A DNA stretch of 27,173 nucleotides, taken from a virus (Duplodnaviria; Caudoviricetes). Location: the IMG/VR virus record IMGVR_UViG_3300044453_000070, positions 1 to 27,173 of that record; one strand, 5' to 3'. The position numbers and the translations under genes are program-made. The notes beneath the pieces were generated by a model that worked only from the letters and a program-made list of their open reading frames with translations, made no database searches and was not told the origin of the DNA. Shown piece after piece: positions 18,653 to 27,173 of the stretch (positions within the stretch are counted from its first letter, which is position 1; the number at the start of each line of letters is the position of its first letter).

Positions 18653-19186
18653 ATGACGTGGTACGCTTTGAGGACCAAACCTGGGGCACAGAAGCCCCAA
18701 CGGGAATACAAGGTCGAAGACACGAGTAGCCGCAAGGGCTATCGCATCGTTCCCAGCCTTGACGCTAACGTGTCCGCTATCGAGCGCGTGTTGACGCAGG
18801 CCGGCATACAGCACTACATGCCGGCCGAGAAGCGATTGATCCGCGATCGGCGCCACACAGACCTGTGGAAGCCTCGCCGGTTCGCTTTGCTAGTCGGCTA
18901 CGTGTTCATCAAAGGCCCGGTCGACTGGTGGCAACTGAGTGAGCTTCCCGGCGTTCATAGCGTGGTGGGAATCAACGGCAAGCCGCTGGAGATTGACTTG
19001 CTCGACATCATGCATTTGCGGAGCCAGGAAGCGGTCATTGAGGAAGAGTTCGACCGCGACGCTCGACGCGCCCGCAAGACGCTCAAGGCCAAGGCACGCG
19101 ACAAGCCATGGCTCAAGAAGCTGGCGGCAAAGCTAGACGCGGCAGACGAATTGACCATGGCGATTGAACTGGCGCGCGCAAGTTGA
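18653..19186 (+). CDS. NusG-family (NGN domain) late antiterminator
   Basis: WYALRTKPG..YMP..LLVGYVFI..LPGVHSVVG..P; occupies the Q position. Confidence 0.85.
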   Translation: MTWYALRTKPGAQKPQREYKVEDTSSRKGYRIVPSLDANVSAIERVLTQAGIQHYMPAEKRLIRDRRHTDLWKPRRFALLVGYVFIKGPVDWWQLSELPGVHSVVGINGKPLEIDLLDIMHLRSQEAVIEEEFDRDARRARKTLKAKARDKPWLKKLAAKLDAADELTMAIELARAS

Positions 19187-19211
19187 CATGGCGCGGCTCA
19201 TGCCGTATGTA
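19183..19211 (+). promoter_or_regulatory. candidate late promoter (PR'-like)
   Basis: TTGACA 19183-19188, N17, TATGTA, directly after the antiterminator gene. Confidence 0.6.
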
Positions 19212-19620
19212 TGAGCGAACGGGTGATTTGCAGCGACGGGGATTCGTCCCGGCTGCGTGCGTGGGTTCTCCGCCGCGCGTTGGCTGCATATTGCCTGACG
19301 TAATTCAGATTGGCGCTTAGCGCCAGCGAGTTGCGAGGTTGCTTGCCGAATTGGCCCCTGGGCCTGTCCAGTCTCCGAGAGATGGCTAGGCAAGACGGTT
19401 GCGGATTTCGCCCCTCGCATTCATTCCCTGCCGCTCCAAGAGTCCGATATCTTCGGGGAGCCACTCAAGGGGCGGCAGGGTTACAGTTGGGAGTATGCTG
19501 GCTCGTAAGATGTCCAGATAGCGAGAGTGCCGCGCCTGCTCTGGTGCGTCTCGCGTAACCACCGGGGCTGTAGCAGGCGCTGCCGGTGCTCCCATATAAA
19601 TCCGAAGAAGGAACACCGCG

Positions 19621-19743
19621 ATGAAGCGCCTAAGGATTAGGATTCTTTTTACCGTAGCCCATGTTCTCCGCGTCCCGATTGATGTCCACGGAAGCTTTTT
19701 TGGCTTCCACACGGAGCCATGCAAAACTTCTTCATGCGCTTAG
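19621..19743 (+). CDS. 40-aa peptide (not in ORF track)
   Basis: RBS GAAGGA; MKRLRIRILFTVAHVLRVPIDVHGSFFG.. Confidence 0.4.
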   Translation: MKRLRIRILFTVAHVLRVPIDVHGSFFGFHTEPCKTSSCA

Positions 19744-19990
19744 CGCCACGACGCATACTGTGCGGTAGGGCTCCGGGTTAGCCCTCTCGCGGCAAACCGC
19801 ACAGGCTTACGAGGCCCGGCTATGCGTCGGAACCGCAGCGGTCATCCGATTGGCGCTGCACAGAGCGGTCACTGCCAACGGTGGCCGCTCTATTCATTCA
19901 GGAGTCTCCCATGTCTGAAGACAGCGACCGTCTGGACATGCTCGCCATCGCGACCGCTGAGGCGCACACGCCCTAAATCAGGATTAGCAG

Positions 19991-20335
19991 ATGCCCTATC
20001 GCGATCCAGCCACCGTGGCGATTGAGAACCTGTACACGCTCCTGGCTCCTGGGGCATCAGGCACGACAACCGATCGATCCGGCTCCATAGCCTCAGGCGG
20101 GACCGCACAGACGCTTGCAGCGGCAAACGGCAACCGTCAGCGTCTCATCGGCCAGAACATCTCCAGCGAGCCTCTGTGGATCAACGAGTTGGGCGGCACG
20201 GCAACGGCAGATACTGTCGGTTCCTATCGCATCTCGTCCTATGCGGTATTCGAGGTACAAACGAAACTCGCGGTTTCCATCGTCGGCCCGACCACGGGTC
20301 AGGAGTGGACCGCGTTCGAACAGAGTAGCGTGTAA
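19991..20335 (+). CDS. beta-rich probable virion accessory protein
   Basis: Gly/Thr/Ala-rich, AQTLAAAN.NR..L..QN.S...LWIN; first long gene of the late region. Confidence 0.55.
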   Translation: MPYRDPATVAIENLYTLLAPGASGTTTDRSGSIASGGTAQTLAAANGNRQRLIGQNISSEPLWINELGGTATADTVGSYRISSYAVFEVQTKLAVSIVGPTTGQEWTAFEQSSV

Positions 20336-20350
20336 GGATGGGCTATCGGT

Positions 20351-20866
20351 ATGGCTGCCCCTGAAGGAAATGACTTCGCGGTTGGCAATCCCGGCGGGGG
20401 CCGCCCGTCTAGCTACAAGCCCGAGTTCGCCCCCATCGCGGAGAAGATGTGCGAGTTAGGCGCGACCGACACGGAGATTGCCGAGGCGTTCGGCGTGAGC
20501 GTCCGCACCATCCACTCGTGGAAGCATGAGTTTGATGAGTTTTCTGCATGCCTGAAGGCAGGTAAGGCGCTCGCTGACGAACGGGTTGAGCGCGGTCTGT
20601 ACCAGAAGGCTACCGGCTACGACTATACGGAAGAGCAGGCCATAAAGGTCAAGGTCGAGGCTCACAAGGAAGAGGTTGAGGTGGTAGAGGTCAAGCGCCA
20701 CGCGCCGGCCGAGACGACCGCCGCGATCTTCTGGCTCAAGAACCGACGCCGCGATCAGTGGCGCGACAAGCAGGAAGTCGACATGAACGTCAGCTATGCG
20801 GACATGTCGGAGGAGGAGTTGCGCGCGGCTGCGATGAAGCTGGCGCTAGAGATAAAGGGCGGCTAG
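20351..20866 (+). CDS. terS: terminase small subunit
   Basis: GRPSSY..GATDTEIAEAFGVS..W..VERGLYQKATGY..AAIFWLKNR..WRDKQE. Confidence 0.88.
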   Translation: MAAPEGNDFAVGNPGGGRPSSYKPEFAPIAEKMCELGATDTEIAEAFGVSVRTIHSWKHEFDEFSACLKAGKALADERVERGLYQKATGYDYTEEQAIKVKVEAHKEEVEVVEVKRHAPAETTAAIFWLKNRRRDQWRDKQEVDMNVSYADMSEEELRAAAMKLALEIKGG

Positions 20867-21051
20867 ACGGGCGTATGTAGCCCAATGCCTGACACCTGTA
20901 GCGCAGCGTACATGTAGACCGCAAACAGCAGCCCGCCTATCAGGTAGGTTGGTACGTAGATACGGGGCGATAAGCCGACCGCGTGCGCTACCAAACCGCT
21001 GAATACCGGCGCGAGAACCGCGACTAGAACCATTGCTTGCCAGTTTGTCAT
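20863..21051 (-). CDS. small two-TM membrane protein
   Basis: RBS AGGAG; hydrophobic 62 aa. Confidence 0.65.
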   Translation of the reverse strand: MTNWQAMVLVAVLAPVFSGLVAHAVGLSPRIYVPTYLIGGLLFAVYMYAALQVSGIGLHTPV

Positions 21052-21227
21052 GGGGTCTCCTAAATCGGGCTGGAACTGAGGTTAGTCTAACTATAGCGTA
21101 TGTGGAATGTGGGATGGTTAGGAGCCTAGCATTCCAACGTATTCACGCCACGGCATAACGTACGTCGTTGTGAGCCATAGCCGCCTGTGGTGGCAATACA
21201 GTGCAACATGGCTATCGTGCGGTTCGT

Positions 21228-21458
21228 TCACGGCCTCGTCTCCTTCAGCCTGTAGCTACGGATAGCGCAGTGTCGCTCGCGTCTGTTGCGGTCATTGGCG
21301 GCTTCCAGCATGATCTTGCGTGCGGTTCCTTCGTGGTTGGCCGCGCGCACTAGGAGATCAAGTTTAAGTTCCTCGCGTGCCCTTTTGGCCATCCGACGGT
21401 TGCTCTGTGCGGCTATCATGCCTAGCACGGAGGCTTGGAAGAGACTGGATAGGCTCAC
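21228..21458 (-). CDS. hypothetical basic protein
   Basis: RBS AGGAG, GTG start. Confidence 0.6.
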   Translation of the reverse strand: MSLSSLFQASVLGMIAAQSNRRMAKRAREELKLDLLVRAANHEGTARKIMLEAANDRNRRERHCAIRSYRLKETRP

Positions 21459-21479
21459 GGCTTGTGTCTCCTAAGGGTG

Positions 21480-21659
21480 TCATACTTTGATCTTGTGGGT
21501 GAACGAGCTTACTTCCAATTCGGCGAGGAAGCGGGCCAGCCCTTTCTCGGTGATGGCGGCCTCGATCTTGGCAACACGCTGTTCCATTTCGGCCTTCTCC
21601 TTCGCCTCCTGGCGGGCGAACTCTGCGTCAGATGTCATTTCAGAATAGTAGTGTCCCAT
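21480..21659 (-). CDS. 59-aa helical protein (not in ORF track)
   Basis: RBS AGGAG; MGHYYSEMTSDAEFARQEAKEKAEMEQRVAKIEAAITEKGLARFLAELEVSSFTHKIKV. Confidence 0.65.
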   Translation of the reverse strand: MGHYYSEMTSDAEFARQEAKEKAEMEQRVAKIEAAITEKGLARFLAELEVSSFTHKIKV

Positions 21660-21671
21660 TGGGGTCTCCTG

Positions 21672-22256
21672 TTACGGCCTGTGTTTGCGTAGCGTGTCAT
21701 TGATCCTCGCCTGCCATCCAGGGCCAGTAGCGCGGAATGCTTCGATGATGTCGGGGTCTAGGCCAACAGACTCGACAACGCTTATAGCATCGGTCCCCTT
21801 GCCCATGTTGCAGTCGCTGCAAAGGGTTATGAGGTTGCTGATGTCGTCTGAGCCGCCACGCGAAACGGGCAGCATGTGGTCGATGTGCAGCACGACCTTG
21901 TGTTCGTCGGCATTGCGACCGCACATCTGACACCTGTAGTCGTCGCGCGAGAAGACATTGAACCGTGTCTTCAGCGAGATAGATCGGGCTTGCTGCTGCC
22001 CGGACGCCACTCTATGGCTTTTGACGCGGCACCGGTCCGAACAAAACTTGGCGTGCCAAGCGCCATAGAACGCGCTGCCGCACCACGCACATTGATGCTC
22101 GTAAGCGCCGCTTGAACGGAGTTTGGCGGCCTCCTCGACGGGCAAGCAAAGCGATGGCGTCTGGACATCGTTGACCAACTTGGCAGGCTTGTTCTTGCAG
22201 GACCGGCCGCACCATCGCCACGAATTACAGACGCCACACTTGTTAAGAAGGTCCAT
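21672..22256 (-). CDS. HNH endonuclease with BrnA-antitoxin-like C-terminal motif
   Basis: RFNVFSRDDYRCQMCG..LHIDHMLPVSRGG..NL..LC..CN..KG then LDPDIIEAFRATGPGWQARINDTLR. Confidence 0.85.
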   Translation of the reverse strand: MDLLNKCGVCNSWRWCGRSCKNKPAKLVNDVQTPSLCLPVEEAAKLRSSGAYEHQCAWCGSAFYGAWHAKFCSDRCRVKSHRVASGQQQARSISLKTRFNVFSRDDYRCQMCGRNADEHKVVLHIDHMLPVSRGGSDDISNLITLCSDCNMGKGTDAISVVESVGLDPDIIEAFRATGPGWQARINDTLRKHRP

Positions 22257-22267
22257 CGCGTTCTCCG

Positions 22268-22312
22268 CCCGTTACAGGAGTGTATGATACGTTAGTGTAA
22301 CGGGGCATGCAA
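22268..22312 (-). promoter_or_regulatory. sigma70-type promoter with overlapping inverted repeat, driving the antisense cassette
   Basis: TTGCAT (22312-22307) N17 TATCAT (22289-22284); CCCGTTACA 22268-22276 / TGTAACGGG 22296-22304. Confidence 0.7.
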
Positions 22313-22350
22313 TGGGTATATGGCGAACAGTTAAGCAGTAAAGGCGCAAC

Positions 22351-24123
22351 GTGGAAGTTCACGATAATCCCGAACGCCTGAGCCTATTCGAGGGCCTGTC
22401 TGAGGCCGACATCGGCCGCATGACCCGCGACCAAGTCGCCCGCATGCTGGGCATCCTTGAGGCGCAGAAGAAGCGCGAAGGGCAACGGCTGTTCTGGCGC
22501 TACTTCCCGGACAAGGACACATCGTATCCGGGCGGCGTGATGTTCCACGCTCGCGAGAAGTACGCAAAGCATCTGGAGTTCTTCCGGGTCGGCGCTACGT
22601 TCCGCGAACGCTGCTTCATGGCGGCCAATCGCTGCATCACTCCGTGGACATGGCTTCAAACGCCGGCCGGTGAGGCCCTGAGCGCAGAAGTTTGGACTTC
22701 GGAAGATGCGACTGTTCTGGCGTGGGACGGTGAAGCAGAACGAACCGCTCAAGCGCAGCACGGAATTCTGAAGTGCATTGAGCCAGCGTTTCGTCTGGTG
22801 ATGGGCAGCGGTCGATTCTTTGACTGCACCCGTAAGCACCGGGTATTGTCGAACGAGGGGTGGCTTTCGCTCGACCAGATAGTGTCTCGTGCAAGTGGTC
22901 TGCGTTTGTGGCATAGACGCGAAGATTATCAGGCCAATTGTGTCGCGGGTGGCTATCTCGGTGGTCAACCACTTCGGTCGCTCGGAGGTATCGACCTAGC
23001 GTCACTTCGGCCACAAGGCGATGCTCAAGGACGCGCCCCGTTGATTTTCGCGCTTCCGGATGAAGCGGAGCAAACACTTCGACATATCCGTGCTTGTCAA
23101 GGACGCGACCGCCTTTCCAGCCAGGATGATCTGTACCGCTTCGCGGCCCTGTTCGCGATGTTTGCAGGTGCGTCGAGCGCGCAATCCTGTCTATCGCTGA
23201 GCGAGTGCACCCGAGACGTTCTGCGGTTTGTTCAAGCGTCAGTCGCTCAACTTCGACAAGATGGCGAACGGTATCGCGATCAATCCGACGCCTATGATCG
23301 CCTCGCTTCTGCCCTGAAGGGATGCCTCGGCGGATCATGTACGCGGACAGGGACGGATGCGATACGCCGATCTGGCGCGCTATGTCATGACGTCCAAGAC
23401 CTTGGCGGCTCAGTTCAAGAATGGTTTGATGGTGAGGGTCGCATAGCGATCTTTTACCCATACGGCCATGTTCCTTTGGTCGGCGGTGAGCACATAGCGG
23501 CAATCGTACCACTCGGTTTGCAGCCAATAATAGACGCAACCGTTCCGGAACACCAGAACTATAAGGCCGCTGGCGTCTACCACCACAACACTGGCAAGAC
23601 CGTAGCCGGCGCTTACGAGACGAGTTGCCATCTGACGGGGCTTTACCCGGATTGGTGGGAAGGTCGACGGTTTGACCGCCCCATCAGGGCATGGGCGGCC
23701 GGCAAGACCAACGAGACGACACGCGACATCGTGCAGGGCTCGCTGATGGGCGAGGTACAGCCTGGCGTCGCCCGCAAGGGGTTTACGGGCACAGGCCTCG
23801 TTCCCGGCGCATTGATCAAACAGGATTCGGTCGCATGGAAGCAGGGCGTTGCCGACCTGTGCGACACGGTGAAGGTGAAGCATGCTTCGGGCGGCTGGTC
23901 CCAGCTTGGCTTCAAAAGCTATCAGCAGGGGCGCGGTTCATTCGAGGGCACGGCGCAGCACGTCATTTGGCTTGATGAGGAGCCGCCGCTGGACGTTTAC
24001 GGCGAGTGCCTTATCCGCACCGCGACCACAAAGGGCATCATCCTCCTGACGTTCACGCCGCTTGAGGGCATGTCGGAAACCGTCATGCAGTTCATGCCGC
24101 AAGAGCACAAGACCGATGCCTGA
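22351..24123 (+). CDS. terL: terminase large subunit, N-terminal (ATPase) part, intein-containing; 271 aa after splicing
   Basis: Walker A MAANR|TGKT split by intein; FKSYQQGRGSFEG; Walker B IWLDEE; TFTPLEG. Confidence 0.93.
   Translation: MEVHDNPERLSLFEGLSEADIGRMTRDQVARMLGILEAQKKREGQRLFWRYFPDKDTSYPGGVMFHAREKYAKHLEFFRVGATFRERCFMAANRCITPWTWLQTPAGEALSAEVWTSEDATVLAWDGEAERTAQAQHGILKCIEPAFRLVMGSGRFFDCTRKHRVLSNEGWLSLDQIVSRASGLRLWHRREDYQANCVAGGYLGGQPLRSLGGIDLASLRPQGDAQGRAPLIFALPDEAEQTLRHIRACQGRDRLSSQDDLYRFAALFAMFAGASSAQSCLSLSECTRDVLRFVQASVAQLRQDGERYRDQSDAYDRLASALKGCLGGSCTRTGTDAIRRSGALCHDVQDLGGSVQEWFDGEGRIAIFYPYGHVPLVGGEHIAAIVPLGLQPIIDATVPEHQNYKAAGVYHHNTGKTVAGAYETSCHLTGLYPDWWEGRRFDRPIRAWAAGKTNETTRDIVQGSLMGEVQPGVARKGFTGTGLVPGALIKQDSVAWKQGVADLCDTVKVKHASGGWSQLGFKSYQQGRGSFEGTAQHVIWLDEEPPLDVYGECLIRTATTKGIILLTFTPLEGMSETVMQFMPQEHKTDA
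22633..23589 (+). mobile_element. intein 1 (319 aa) in TerL Walker A
   Basis: Block A CITPWT, block B CTRKHRVL, block F/G IIDATVPEHQNYKAAGVYHHN, +1 Thr. Confidence 0.92.
22637..23461 (-). CDS. HTH-HTH-HNH endonuclease encoded antisense inside intein 1 (274 aa)
   Basis: AAAGGA-N10-ATG; IARQIGVS and TAERLGC HTHs; HPGWKGG..GYV..GRVLEHRLVAE..LGR.L...EVVDHRD....NWPDNL. Confidence 0.88.
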   Translation of the reverse strand: MGKRSLCDPHHQTILELSRQGLGRHDIARQIGVSHPSLSAYMIRRGIPSGQKRGDHRRRIDRDTVRHLVEVERLTLEQTAERLGCTRSAIDRIARSTHLQTSRTGPRSGTDHPGWKGGRVLDKHGYVEVFAPLHPEARKSTGRVLEHRLVAEVTLGRYLRATEVVDHRDSHPRHNWPDNLRVYATNADHLHETLSGRAKATPRSTIPGAYGCSQRIDRCPSPDETLAQCTSEFRAALERFVLLHRPTPEQSHLPKSKLLRSGPHRPAFEAMSTE

Positions 24124-24691
24124 GAATAAGGTGACGCTATCGCGCGAGTGCTGGCACCGCGCCGACCGGCAGAAGAGGTGCGTGCGCTGCGGCGAGACGA
24201 AGCGTCTTGCGGATTTCTATTCGTATGGTTACGTCACGAACCAAGGGAAGCCAAGCACCAGGTATGAAAGCCGGTGCATCGACTGCAGTAAGGCTAGGAT
24301 GGCGGAGCAAAGGAAGGCGAAACCGCATCTCGTGGTTGAGCAGAACCGCCGAAGGTACGACCGCAATCCCAATTGGTCTCGTGAGCAGTCCAAGCGGTAT
24401 AGAAACACGGAGCATGGCCGTCTCAAGAAGGCTCTTTTGCAGCGCCAGCGAAAGGCGAGAATGCGCAGCAAGTCCGGCGACAATGCCGCTATTAAGGCAG
24501 TCTACGCATTGGCAATGGAGATAGAGCGTATCGTCGCTCAGTGCCCGGTGTTCGATATTCCGGAACTCGGCAAGAAGATGCACGTCGATCACATCATGCC
24601 CCTGTCGCGCGGCGGTCTGCATGAGGTTGAGAATCTGCAAATTCTGCCAATCGGGCTCAATATGCGAAAGGGCGCGTCGTGCCCGAGATAA
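24116..24691 (+). CDS. free-standing HNH endonuclease between the terL halves (191 aa)
   Basis: CVRC..CIDC zinc ribbon; MHVDHIMPLSRGGLHEVENLQILP...NMRKG; overlaps both terL ORFs. Confidence 0.9.
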   Translation: MPENKVTLSRECWHRADRQKRCVRCGETKRLADFYSYGYVTNQGKPSTRYESRCIDCSKARMAEQRKAKPHLVVEQNRRRYDRNPNWSREQSKRYRNTEHGRLKKALLQRQRKARMRSKSGDNAAIKAVYALAMEIERIVAQCPVFDIPELGKKMHVDHIMPLSRGGLHEVENLQILPIGLNMRKGASCPR

Positions 24692-26385
24692 CCTCGTCTC
24701 GGTACCTTGTCACGGCGGGCTGGAGCAATGTCCCGCACCTAGACGAGGACACCAAGCGCGAGCTGCTGAACTCGACGCCGCCGCACCTTCGGGATGCGCG
24801 CACCAAGGGCATCCCTTCGCTCGGTTCCGGTGCGATCTACCCGGTTGCATGGGAGGAAGTCGAGTGTAGGCCGTTCGCTATCCCGGCTTATTGGCCGAAG
24901 GCGTATGCGCTCGACGTGGGCTGGAACAAGACCGCTGCCCTGTGGGGCGCGAAAGACCCGTCCGATGGCGTGCTGTACATCTACGCCGAGCACTATCGAG
25001 GGCAGGAGTTGCCGCCGGTCCACGCCGAGGCGATCAAGGTTCGCGGGGCTTGGATCAAGGGCGCGATTGACCCTGCCGCTCGTGGCCGTGCCCAGCGCGA
25101 CGGCGAGCAACTGATGAGCCAGTATGTGTCGCTCGGGCTGAAGCTGACGCCAGCGAACAACGCGGTCGAGTCTGGCCTGTACGAGATATGGAAACTGCTT
25201 TCCATCGGGCGCATCCGGTTCTTTTCGACGCTGCAGAACACGAAGGCTGAGTATCGCATGTATCGCCGTGATGAGCGCGGCCGGGTGGTGAAAGAGTTCG
25301 ATCACCTGATGGATTGCTTCGTCGCCGACACGCCGGTTCACACCAGTGATGGCATTAAGCGAATTGGCGATATGGTAGGAACAACCGGTCTTGTGAGAAC
25401 GGTCGGCGGCGTGTTTGCTCCTTACCATTCCTGCCAAAAGTATGGCAGCGATCGGCAGGTGGTGACGCTGACATTCTCCGATGGCTCAGAGGTAACCTGT
25501 ACTCCTGATCATAGGTTCATGTCGGGCGGCAAATGGGTCCAAGCGATTGATATGGCAGGGCGCTTGTGCGATACTGCGGTATCGAATAGCGCAGGCTTTA
25601 GCAAATGCCGGTCACGGTCATCTCTGGAACCATTCAGGAATACAAAGGCGAGCGGTACTACCTCTGCGGCAAGTACTTCCAACGCGCGGGGCTGCGCCTT
25701 CACGTCGCTGTTTGGAAGGATGCGAATGGCTGTGATGTCCCAGATGGGCATCACGTCCATCACAAGGACCACGACAGGGCCAACAACCAGCCATGGAACC
25801 TGGAAGCGAAGCCTAAAGGGCTGCATATCTCCGATCACCAGCGCGGGCATGGGCGCGGCATTTCTAGCAATGCACTTGCCGCTGCGGCTGAATGGCATAG
25901 CTCGCCGAGCGGTGCGGAATGGCATCGAAGCCACTATGAGGCAACCAAGCATTTTCTGCATGAACCCGCAGATTTCGTTTGCGAGCATTGTGCCAAGCCG
26001 TTCACGAGCACAGCGAGGGGGCATGCTCGATTTTGCTCGAACAACTGCAAAACCAAGGCACGGAAACTTACTGGAGTTGACGACGAAAGCCGCTCCTGCG
26101 TCCGGTGTGGCTCATCGTTCATTGTCAACCGGTACTCGCGAACCGTCACTTGTAGCCGAAAGTGCGCAGGTGCGGTGTCTGGCGATAAGAGACGCCGGCC
26201 GCGCTGACGTTTACTGTCTGACCGTCCCAAGCACATCAGCTTTCGCCGTAGGCGAGGCAGGCATCATCGCGCACAATTGCCTACGCTACCTCGTCATGAC
26301 GTGGGACCAGATCGCAGCGGTACAGGCCCCGGAGCGCAGCCGCGCGACCGTCAACGCAATCTCTGACATGTACGCAGGTTACTGA
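24679..26385 (+). CDS. terL: terminase large subunit, C-terminal (lid + RNase H-like nuclease) part, intein-containing; 247 aa after splicing
   Basis: GAAAGGG before GTG; AGWSNVPHL..ARTKGIP; YALDVGW, IDPAA, DHLMD|CLRY. Confidence 0.92.
   Translation: MPEITSSRYLVTAGWSNVPHLDEDTKRELLNSTPPHLRDARTKGIPSLGSGAIYPVAWEEVECRPFAIPAYWPKAYALDVGWNKTAALWGAKDPSDGVLYIYAEHYRGQELPPVHAEAIKVRGAWIKGAIDPAARGRAQRDGEQLMSQYVSLGLKLTPANNAVESGLYEIWKLLSIGRIRFFSTLQNTKAEYRMYRRDERGRVVKEFDHLMDCFVADTPVHTSDGIKRIGDMVGTTGLVRTVGGVFAPYHSCQKYGSDRQVVTLTFSDGSEVTCTPDHRFMSGGKWVQAIDMAGRLCDTAVSNSAGFSKCRSRSSLEPFRNTKASGTTSAASTSNARGCAFTSLFGRMRMAVMSQMGITSITRTTTGPTTSHGTWKRSLKGCISPITSAGMGAAFLAMHLPLRLNGIARRAVRNGIEATMRQPSIFCMNPQISFASIVPSRSRAQRGGMLDFARTTAKPRHGNLLELTTKAAPASGVAHRSLSTGTREPSLVAESAQVRCLAIRDAGRADVYCLTVPSTSAFAVGEAGIIAHNCLRYLVMTWDQIAAVQAPERSRATVNAISDMYAGY
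25547..25575 (+). promoter_or_regulatory. candidate internal promoter for the nested HNH gene
   Basis: TTGATA N17 GATACT with extended -10 TG, ending 30 nt before ATG 25605. Confidence 0.6.
25605..26207 (+). CDS. HNH endonuclease in a shifted frame inside intein 2 (200 aa)
   Basis: RLHVAVW....DVPDGHHVHHKDHDRANNQPWNL; C-terminal CEHC..FCSNNC and CVRC..TCSRKC zinc ribbons. Confidence 0.9.
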   Translation: MPVTVISGTIQEYKGERYYLCGKYFQRAGLRLHVAVWKDANGCDVPDGHHVHHKDHDRANNQPWNLEAKPKGLHISDHQRGHGRGISSNALAAAAEWHSSPSGAEWHRSHYEATKHFLHEPADFVCEHCAKPFTSTARGHARFCSNNCKTKARKLTGVDDESRSCVRCGSSFIVNRYSRTVTCSRKCAGAVSGDKRRRPR

Positions 26386-27173
26386 TGGCAGAAATGGCAG
26401 AGATGGCGCCGGAGGCGGTCAACCCCGAAGACGCGCAGCGCAAGTTGCTGGACGCACTGAAGGGCATCGTCGGCCGTCTGGAATCCGAGGCGACGGATCG
26501 TGTCGGCAAGCGCCAGTCGCTTGAGCGACGCTGGATCGAAGACCTTGAGCAGTACCACGGGCGTTACGACACCGAGACGGAAAAGGCGCTGCGGAACGGC
26601 GACAAGTCCAAGCTGTTCATCAACCTGACGCGTCCGAAGACCGACGCGATGGAAGCGCGGTTGACGGACCTTCTGTTCCCGACCGACGACAAGAATTGGG
26701 GCATCGGCCCGACGCCTGTCCCCAGCCTGACCAAGGGCGCAAAGGATGCCGTCGCGCAGGCCCGCCAGAAGGCCGAGGAAGCGAAGGCGGCTGCGGCGGG
26801 TGGCGATCCCGCAATGGCGCAGGCTGCGGCTCAGGAAGCCAACCTGGCCCAGCAGAAGGCCAACGAGCTAAACACGGTTATCGAGGAAGCGTCTCGCCGC
26901 GCCGAACTGATGGCGCAGGAGATAGACGACCAACTGAAGCAGTCCAACTATCACGCGGCCATGCGCGACGTGATCGGTGATGCGGCCAAGCTCGGAACCG
27001 GCGTGTGCAAGGGGCCGGTCACTGGCGACAAGGTGCGCAAGGGTTGGAAGAAGGTCGACGTTGCCGATGGCAACGGGAATGTGTCGAGCCAGTATCAGTT
27101 GCAGATGGCCACGGGCGATCACCCGTCCATGCGCTACGTCGACATCTGGTCGTTCTTCCCCGATATGGACGCT
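26385..27173 (+). CDS. portal protein, 5' part (runs off window)
   Basis: ATG overlaps terL stop; MAEMAEMAPE..W..DLEQY.G..SKLFINLTRPK..LFP..NWGIGPTP; position after terL. Confidence 0.85.
   Translation, partial: MAEMAEMAPEAVNPEDAQRKLLDALKGIVGRLESEATDRVGKRQSLERRWIEDLEQYHGRYDTETEKALRNGDKSKLFINLTRPKTDAMEARLTDLLFPTDDKNWGIGPTPVPSLTKGAKDAVAQARQKAEEAKAAAAGGDPAMAQAAAQEANLAQQKANELNTVIEEASRRAELMAQEIDDQLKQSNYHAAMRDVIGDAAKLGTGVCKGPVTGDKVRKGWKKVDVADGNGNVSSQYQLQMATGDHPSMRYVDIWSFFPDMDA

Follow-up and report, generated by a model that had tools for sequence, protein, structure and literature searches.

Can a contiguous intein hold an intact nuclease gene in a reading frame other than its own, and is that gene kept by selection? 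The question is raised by the IMG/VR record IMGVR_UViG_3300044453_000070 (Duplodnaviria; Caudoviricetes), of which we analysed a stretch of 27,173 nucleotides (nt), hereafter the window. It comes from a temperate tailed phage with an integrase, an antirepressor, the terminase small (terS) and large (terL) subunit genes and a portal-like gene. Two inteins interrupt TerL and each encloses an HNH gene in another frame: HNH1, antisense, in intein 1 and HNH2, on the same strand in the +2 frame, in intein 2, both read within the terL loci (22351-24123 and 24679-26385). The sequence comparisons below make it quite probable that each insert is an intein with an intact, out-of-frame HNH gene kept by selection, likely forming a two-gene homing element. 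A preliminary description of this DNA had proposed a third intein architecture, a free HNH gene housed in a mini-intein. Frame-specific selection, the avoidance of stops, conserved starts and promoter-like boxes, and an empty allele all speak for that proposal, but its claim to novelty falls, as earlier accounts describe the architecture in Brucella phages (2015), actinophage inteins (2025) and a dnaX intein (2026).

The two inteins are complete, their announced lengths (319 and 321 amino acids, aa) were borne out, and their boundaries and catalytic residues could be placed. Both carry the class 1 residues, namely a Cys at position 1, the block B His, the block F Asp, a terminal His-Asn and a Cys or Thr at +1; in intein 1, C1, H69, D301, H318 and N319 are invariant among 39 aligned copies. 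The insertion sites lie at motifs which we take to be Walker A for intein 1 and DHLMD for intein 2. Intein 2 is recognised by TIGR01445 and TIGR01443 above cut-off and by Pfam Intein_splicing (E 2.6e-7). Intein 1 has no Pfam intein match; its AlphaFold model resembles HINT structures (Foldseek, 18 matches at E<=0.001, best E 4.9e-6, the top rows all inteins), with a predicted local distance difference test score of about 90 in both splicing blocks and low values in the centre. Searches of both host open reading frames (ORFs) against Pfam, NCBIfam and PHROGs found no in-frame endonuclease, as the preliminary description had stated. The canonical layout, with the endonuclease in the intein frame, is therefore absent, and the centre of intein 1 has a ratio of nonsynonymous to synonymous substitution rates (dN/dS) above 1 in the intein frame. 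What both inteins contain is an intact nuclease ORF in another frame of a contiguous intein; the layout of split inteins in a fractured gene is not seen in the window. A sequencing or assembly artefact was rejected because contigs from four runs (X2, a possible source whose contig spans the whole stretch, and X5, X6 and X7, which carry no such flag) show zero substitutions and zero indels relative to the window. The inserts do not share one polypeptide chain, as had been supposed: they lie in separate ORFs, one for the ATPase half of TerL, whose post-intein part is 64-75% identical to relatives, and one for the nuclease half. Inteins 1 and 2 have no detectable relation (BLASTP E 0.044) and the likeness of HNH1 to HNH2 is confined to the catalytic core, which makes independent origins likely, in line with the dissimilarity and the repeated origin proposed at the outset.

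For the antisense gene the evidence of purifying selection is strong. HNH1 is laid out as two predicted helix-turn-helix (HTH) domains (residues ~1-100), an I-HmuI-like catalytic domain (109-197) and a tail (~197-274). A beta-beta-alpha-metal motif thus stands beside a DNA-binding domain, and the catalytic His and Asn are invariant in the nested HNH homologues. The core of the HNH1 model aligns weakly with I-HmuI (Z 4.8, root-mean-square deviation 3.2, 76 residues); Foldseek with this model returned nothing at E<=0.001, and the VIA rows span the HTH and catalytic parts only. Translation most likely starts at the ATG at 23461 (274 aa), which is conserved and lies 3' of a Shine-Dalgarno (SD)-like stretch. 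The TTG at 23539 was rejected as a start because homologues begin at the ATG, several of them with stops just upstream; the preliminary account of two intact nested genes, one antisense and one shifted on the same strand, stood. Three collection scans and one direct scan yielded 68 distinct HNH1-like loci, of which 25 were cut or too distant and 43, the window copy included, were readable over the whole intein; a scan of GTDB with the HNH1 alignment gave one locus, and a protein search 54 further TerL proteins with intein 1. In all 43 readable loci HNH1 lies in one and the same antisense register and the intein frame is open throughout, with no stop in it against 239 expected from synonymous shuffles of the HNH gene, in agreement with the early claim that this frame is kept open. 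For the window copy alone, such shuffles give a mean of 5.0 stops and a probability of none of 0.0005. The frame-specific dN/dS comparison suggested earlier also favours a selected nuclease: the ratio in the HNH1 core is 0.19 for the HNH frame and 1.71 for that of the intein, and in the non-overlapped C block the order is reversed, with 2.25 and 0.13, respectively (20 close pairs drawn from 28 sequences). Values for HNH1 in its own frame range from 0.14 to 0.19. A scan with the sigma-70 consensus found no promoter for HNH1; at its possible -10 sites, the rare codon ATA is used in 35 of 54 Ile codons, versus 49 of 360 in the exteins. No RNA data set is listed among the 17 sequencing runs surveyed.

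One property of HNH1 escaped the preliminary description, which did not see that the antisense ORF crosses the N-terminal splicing block. HNH1 stops 4 nt from the 5' end of the intein in the window and 4-25 nt from it in most of the clade (133-193 nt in five distant copies), and therefore its tail faces the N-terminal splicing blocks. This dual-coded stretch has no wobble position: identities at the three codon positions are 0.65/0.63/0.60, with an interval of -0.05 to 0.10 for position 2 minus position 3, compared with 0.65/0.69/0.40 in the C block and 0.52/0.60/0.31 in the N block of intein 2. Its fourfold sites are more conserved (0.58) than those of the controls (0.34 and 0.26), which differ from it in divergence. 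Both frames have a dN/dS below 1 (0.46 and 0.66), and 36 copies contain one stop versus 46 expected. The simplest reading is that the HNH1 tail is a selected protein tail; alternatively, a constraint at the DNA or RNA level may lie behind the conservation. More tentatively, and less likely than not, the C-terminal ~78 residues of HNH1 could be a new domain born by overprinting opposite the splicing block and selected in both frames, in which case this interlock and the stages seen within one nuclease family would illustrate how inteins are proposed to acquire nucleases. If so, the overprinted tail would tie nuclease and intein together, prevent a clean deletion of the nuclease, bend the intein sequence and stop the homing cycle short of its usual decay. 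Taken with an HNH family in contiguous, split and free-standing forms, stages of nuclease gain would have been caught, and the splicing block would offer a compact natural example of two selected proteins on opposite strands.

That family is the one of HNH2. The scan confirmed at least 461 stretches, and the best 80 of these were fetched. Among 69 distinct loci, the nuclease lies in an open +2 host frame in 49 (27 with both intein ends scored), between a stopped intein N piece and a separate C piece in 14, and is free-standing or otherwise placed in the remaining 6. The same HNH family thus occurs in contiguous and in split-intein forms, a combination for which our searches found no precedent in print, and it ties the fractured-gene model to contiguous inteins. 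On a quick HNH2 tree the split label changes five times, at least three of the changes being forced by strong branches. Across these 27 copies it is the wobble position (position 3) of the HNH frame that varies freely. Synonymous shuffles of the window copy are a weak test here (mean of 0.95 stops in the intein frame, probability of none 0.29), and the absence of stops in the 27 loci was not counted since these had been picked as stop-free, which makes the argument circular. For expression, the sigma-70 scan gave 2 matches versus 1.5 by chance, weak when taken alone; upstream windows scoring >=10 occur in 22 of 70 HNH2 homologues versus 4 of 267 controls, and an SD-like signal precedes 51 of the 70. 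An in-frame stop stands 3 nt before the HNH2 ATG in the window and at <=45 nt in most homologues. At one locus, excluded from the tree and counts (L086:1705-2665), the frame of intein 2 runs on into the second half of HNH2 after a shift of one base; this may be an assembly error, a pseudogene or a step to an in-frame fusion. Free-standing relatives of HNH2 right after an intein-free terL were seen in Pseudomonas phage FBPa53 (L286) and at L159, L165 and L176, and are a possible source pool.

An empty allele was found in a 58,290-nt contig of run X12, which differs from the window at 73 of 1,752 extein bases (96% identical), skips both inteins exactly at their boundaries and is also without the HNH gene that stands between the terL halves in the window. 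Because its +1 residues are Val and Ala, versus Thr and Cys in the window, the inserts likely bring their own nucleophile; Val or Ile at +1 is the rule at the empty site 1, and many relatives are empty. Runs X8, X9 and X16 gave fragments only. In extein trees the window's extein groups with empty alleles. The larger of them, a quick tree of 90 rows, places 26 of 30 intein-1 carriers in one group; none of 200 bootstrap trees unites the intein-1 carriers in a single clade, and three changes are counted in the bootstrap trees. In an approximately unbiased (AU) test, run after removal of 11 long-branch or duplicate carriers and with 20 of the 59 empty rows, a tree that joins all intein-1 exteins in one clade is not rejected (p 0.32), and gain of the inteins is for this reason favoured by the sequences, not proven. 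With its 96%-identical empty allele as a natural target for all three terL nucleases, the locus is unusually testable. Phages with both inteins in their terL halves were also seen elsewhere (L096/L184 and L247), so the pairing is not unique to the window. At L008:904-1995, a different intein occupies the Walker A site of intein 1, with LAGLIDADG-like motifs in frame, as judged by eye.

In the mechanism we propose, each insert would be a two-gene homing element: the intein would splice out of its terminase half and the nuclease would be made separately, from internal promoters running antisense for HNH1 and sense for HNH2. The nuclease would nick or cut an intein-free terL allele, repair would copy the insert in, and the +1 codon would be co-converted. 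This arrangement could have arisen when free HNH genes invaded mini-inteins on two independent occasions. Splicing, expression and cleavage are predictions from sequence, and several points weigh against the proposal: the structural match of the HNH1 core reaches a Z of 4.8 only, the HNH1 -35 box is weak, the dN/dS of HNH2 is based on two close pairs, and in the L086 homologue of HNH2 the frames merge. Moreover, given the AU result and the grouping of 26 of 30 carriers, much of the spread may be vertical, and the empty allele of run X12 could reflect loss by gene conversion instead of the ancestral state.

These same phylogenetic points, together with the fact that purifying selection demonstrates function and not homing, are what favours a different use of the nucleases: no longer homing, they would persist because they help the phage in some other way, for example by cutting the DNA of competing phages or promoting recombination, in inteins inherited mostly vertically. 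We hold this unlikely, as an empty relative is 96% identical to the window's extein, which nests among empty alleles, and the intein family also occurs in divergent terL types. That the nested ORFs are decayed relics or mere shadows of the intein frame might be suspected since antisense ORFs are common in GC-rich DNA and many are listed in the window; this explanation has practically no chance left, being refuted by the frame-specific dN/dS (0.14-0.24 in the nested HNH frames); the catalytic His and Asn are invariant, and identity between homologues is higher in the HNH frame (63% in one example) than in that of the intein (39%).

Two further explanations concern how the nucleases are made and what they serve. 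A -1 ribosomal frameshift could yield HNH2 fused to the N-terminal part of the intein, since the +2 register equals a -1 shift and is kept in all 49 contiguous copies. The stop so close before its ATG and the enrichment of SD-like and promoter-like signals make this very improbable; the +2 register may simply be the easiest one in which to avoid stops (the mean of 0.95 expected), and a frameshift cannot account for the antisense HNH1. The HNH proteins might instead be packaging cofactors of the terminase, as gp74 of phage HK97 reportedly is. Their location inside terL fits such a role, and the Brucella phage paper raises the idea for its phages (PMC4422536). It is still less credible than the frameshift: the near-identical X12 terL has none of the three HNH genes, which led us to reject it, most close terL relatives have none either, and the HNH proteins bear their own HTH or zinc-ribbon DNA-binding parts. 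The reading as two-gene homing elements is thus the one we retain.

Such elements have known relatives. The terL intein of Brucella phages Tb and Pr (JN939331, ORF07/ORF08; PMC4422536) encloses, like intein 2, an HNH gene out of frame on the same strand. It differs in its site (Walker B region) and register (+1), its HNH resembles HNH2 only weakly (BLASTP E 0.014, profile E 7e-10), and the account, as far as accessible, includes no antisense case and no selection analysis. Non-canonical inteins of actinobacteriophages, many of them in terL, carry antisense LAGLIDADG, antisense Vsr-like or frame-3 endonuclease VII-like genes (Gosselin, Arsenault and Gogarten, bioRxiv 10.1101/2025.01.02.630785). 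They share with the window a nuclease out of frame in contiguous inteins, the same invasion model and the same warning on annotation; unlike HNH1, the HNH inteins given in the accessible text are in frame, with no antisense HNH listed. The second ORF is there typically outside the splicing domain, as is that of HNH2, whereas HNH1 crosses this domain. A cyanobacterial dnaX intein with an out-of-frame LAGLIDADG gene (bioRxiv 10.64898/2026.09.14.751524, which cites Gorbalenya 1998) resembles ours in the purifying selection on the nuclease frame, the raised dN/dS of the host frame and the coexisting empty alleles, and differs in nuclease type, in its bacterial gene and in being a single element. 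The fractured genes of Dassa et al. (PMC2677866), in which a free endonuclease lies between split inteins, have the layout of the 14 split HNH2 homologues; their nucleases are GIY-YIG or Vsr-like, HNH being only predicted, whereas the inteins of the window are contiguous. Finally, the hidden HNH of ShiLan in mycobacteriophage methylases (PMC11855218) is also out of frame within an open host frame and has a weak sequence link to HNH1 (tblastn E 8e-6), but it lies on the same strand of a methylase gene, with no intein.

Searches of the accessible literature, which left out most subscription papers and preprint supplements, found in print neither an antisense HNH in an intein nor an overlap of a nested nuclease with an intein splicing block. 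Within the literature searched, three things are new here: an intein with an antisense HNH gene, the dual coding of that gene's tail and the splicing block, and the occurrence of one nuclease family in both contiguous and split forms. The antisense HNH adds a type to the non-canonical inteins on record; elements of this kind are frequent in uncultured phages, where annotation misses them. That annotation pipelines would drop the nested ORFs had been anticipated, and the lack of a Pfam intein match for intein 1 and the unannotated ORFs of phages TJE1 and Ymer agree with it, although the 2025 preprint already gives this warning. Tetrasphaera phage TJE1 (L284) has the contiguous HNH2 form with the nested ORF unannotated, Pectobacterium phage Ymer (L287) an unannotated, distant antisense HNH in its terL intein, and Lactobacillus phage CL2 (L285) the split form with the C piece unannotated.

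Table 1. Features of the terminase region, with positions in the window.
Feature	Position	Strand	Evidence or remark
Terminase small subunit (context)	20351..20866	+	phrog_309 E 8e-52
Fourth HNH gene, between terS and terL, ending in a BrnA-antitoxin-like stretch	21672..22256	-	Pfam HNH E 4e-14, BrnA_antitoxin E 1.3e-11
TerL ATPase-half gene, 590 aa precursor with intein 1	22351..24123	+	Pfam Terminase_6N E 2.9e-12
Intein 1, 319 aa, class-1 motifs, Cys...His-Asn, +1 Thr, presumed Walker A site (AANR / T-GKT)	22633..23589	+	
HNH1, nested antisense HNH gene, 274 aa	22637..23461	-	PHROG HNH E 2.5e-20; Pfam HNH_3 E 6e-4, below cut-off
Dual-coded stretch, intein N-terminal splicing blocks (+) / HNH1 tail (-), ~78 codons	22637..22872	both	
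Possible -10 box for HNH1, encoded by two Ile codons of intein block F	23527..23532	-	-35 weak
Third, free-standing HNH / endonuclease VII-like gene between the terL halves	24116..24691	+	Pfam HNH E 3e-4, phrog_1035 E 4e-20
TerL nuclease-half gene, 568 aa precursor with intein 2	24679..26385	+	Pfam Terminase_6C E 3e-4, phrog_5653 E 4e-14
Intein 2, 321 aa, class-1 motifs, Cys...His-Asn, +1 Cys, 3' of presumed DHLMD motif	25315..26277	+	
Sigma-70-like promoter match, extended -10, 29 nt 5' of HNH2, inside intein 2	25547..25575	+	
HNH2, nested HNH gene, +2 frame, 200 aa, catalytic domain and CxxC zinc-ribbon motifs	25605..26207	+	Pfam HNH_3 E 8e-10; phrog_15471 E 9e-44

The division of terL into two genes was surveyed at 24123-24679 of the window and at loci L002-L080. 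Of 64 distinct relatives examined, 56 show both halves: terL is divided at the ATPase/nuclease junction in 52 of these loci and fused in the other 4. The gap between the halves ranges from an overlap up to 3.7 kb, and the two are often translationally coupled. In the window the middle HNH gene uses the old start of the TerL nuclease half and overlaps the new one by 13 nt, as in the model of Dassa et al. (PMC2677866); a homologue, 39% identical, occupies the same junction in a distant terL (L042:4514-5056). The split predates this gene, because the X12 allele without the insert still consists of two overlapping ORFs. For the same reason a group I intron at the split was rejected, and an Rfam scan of 19000-27173 found no intron at E<=5 and no relevant RNA. 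A two-gene terL in such phages was not found in print in the literature covered, and its presence across the clade is a separate lead on packaging motors. Upstream of terL, the antisense HNH gene at 21672-22256 forms a fusion with the C-terminal ~30 residues of a BrnA-like antitoxin. The X12 contig diverges from the window upstream of 22346.

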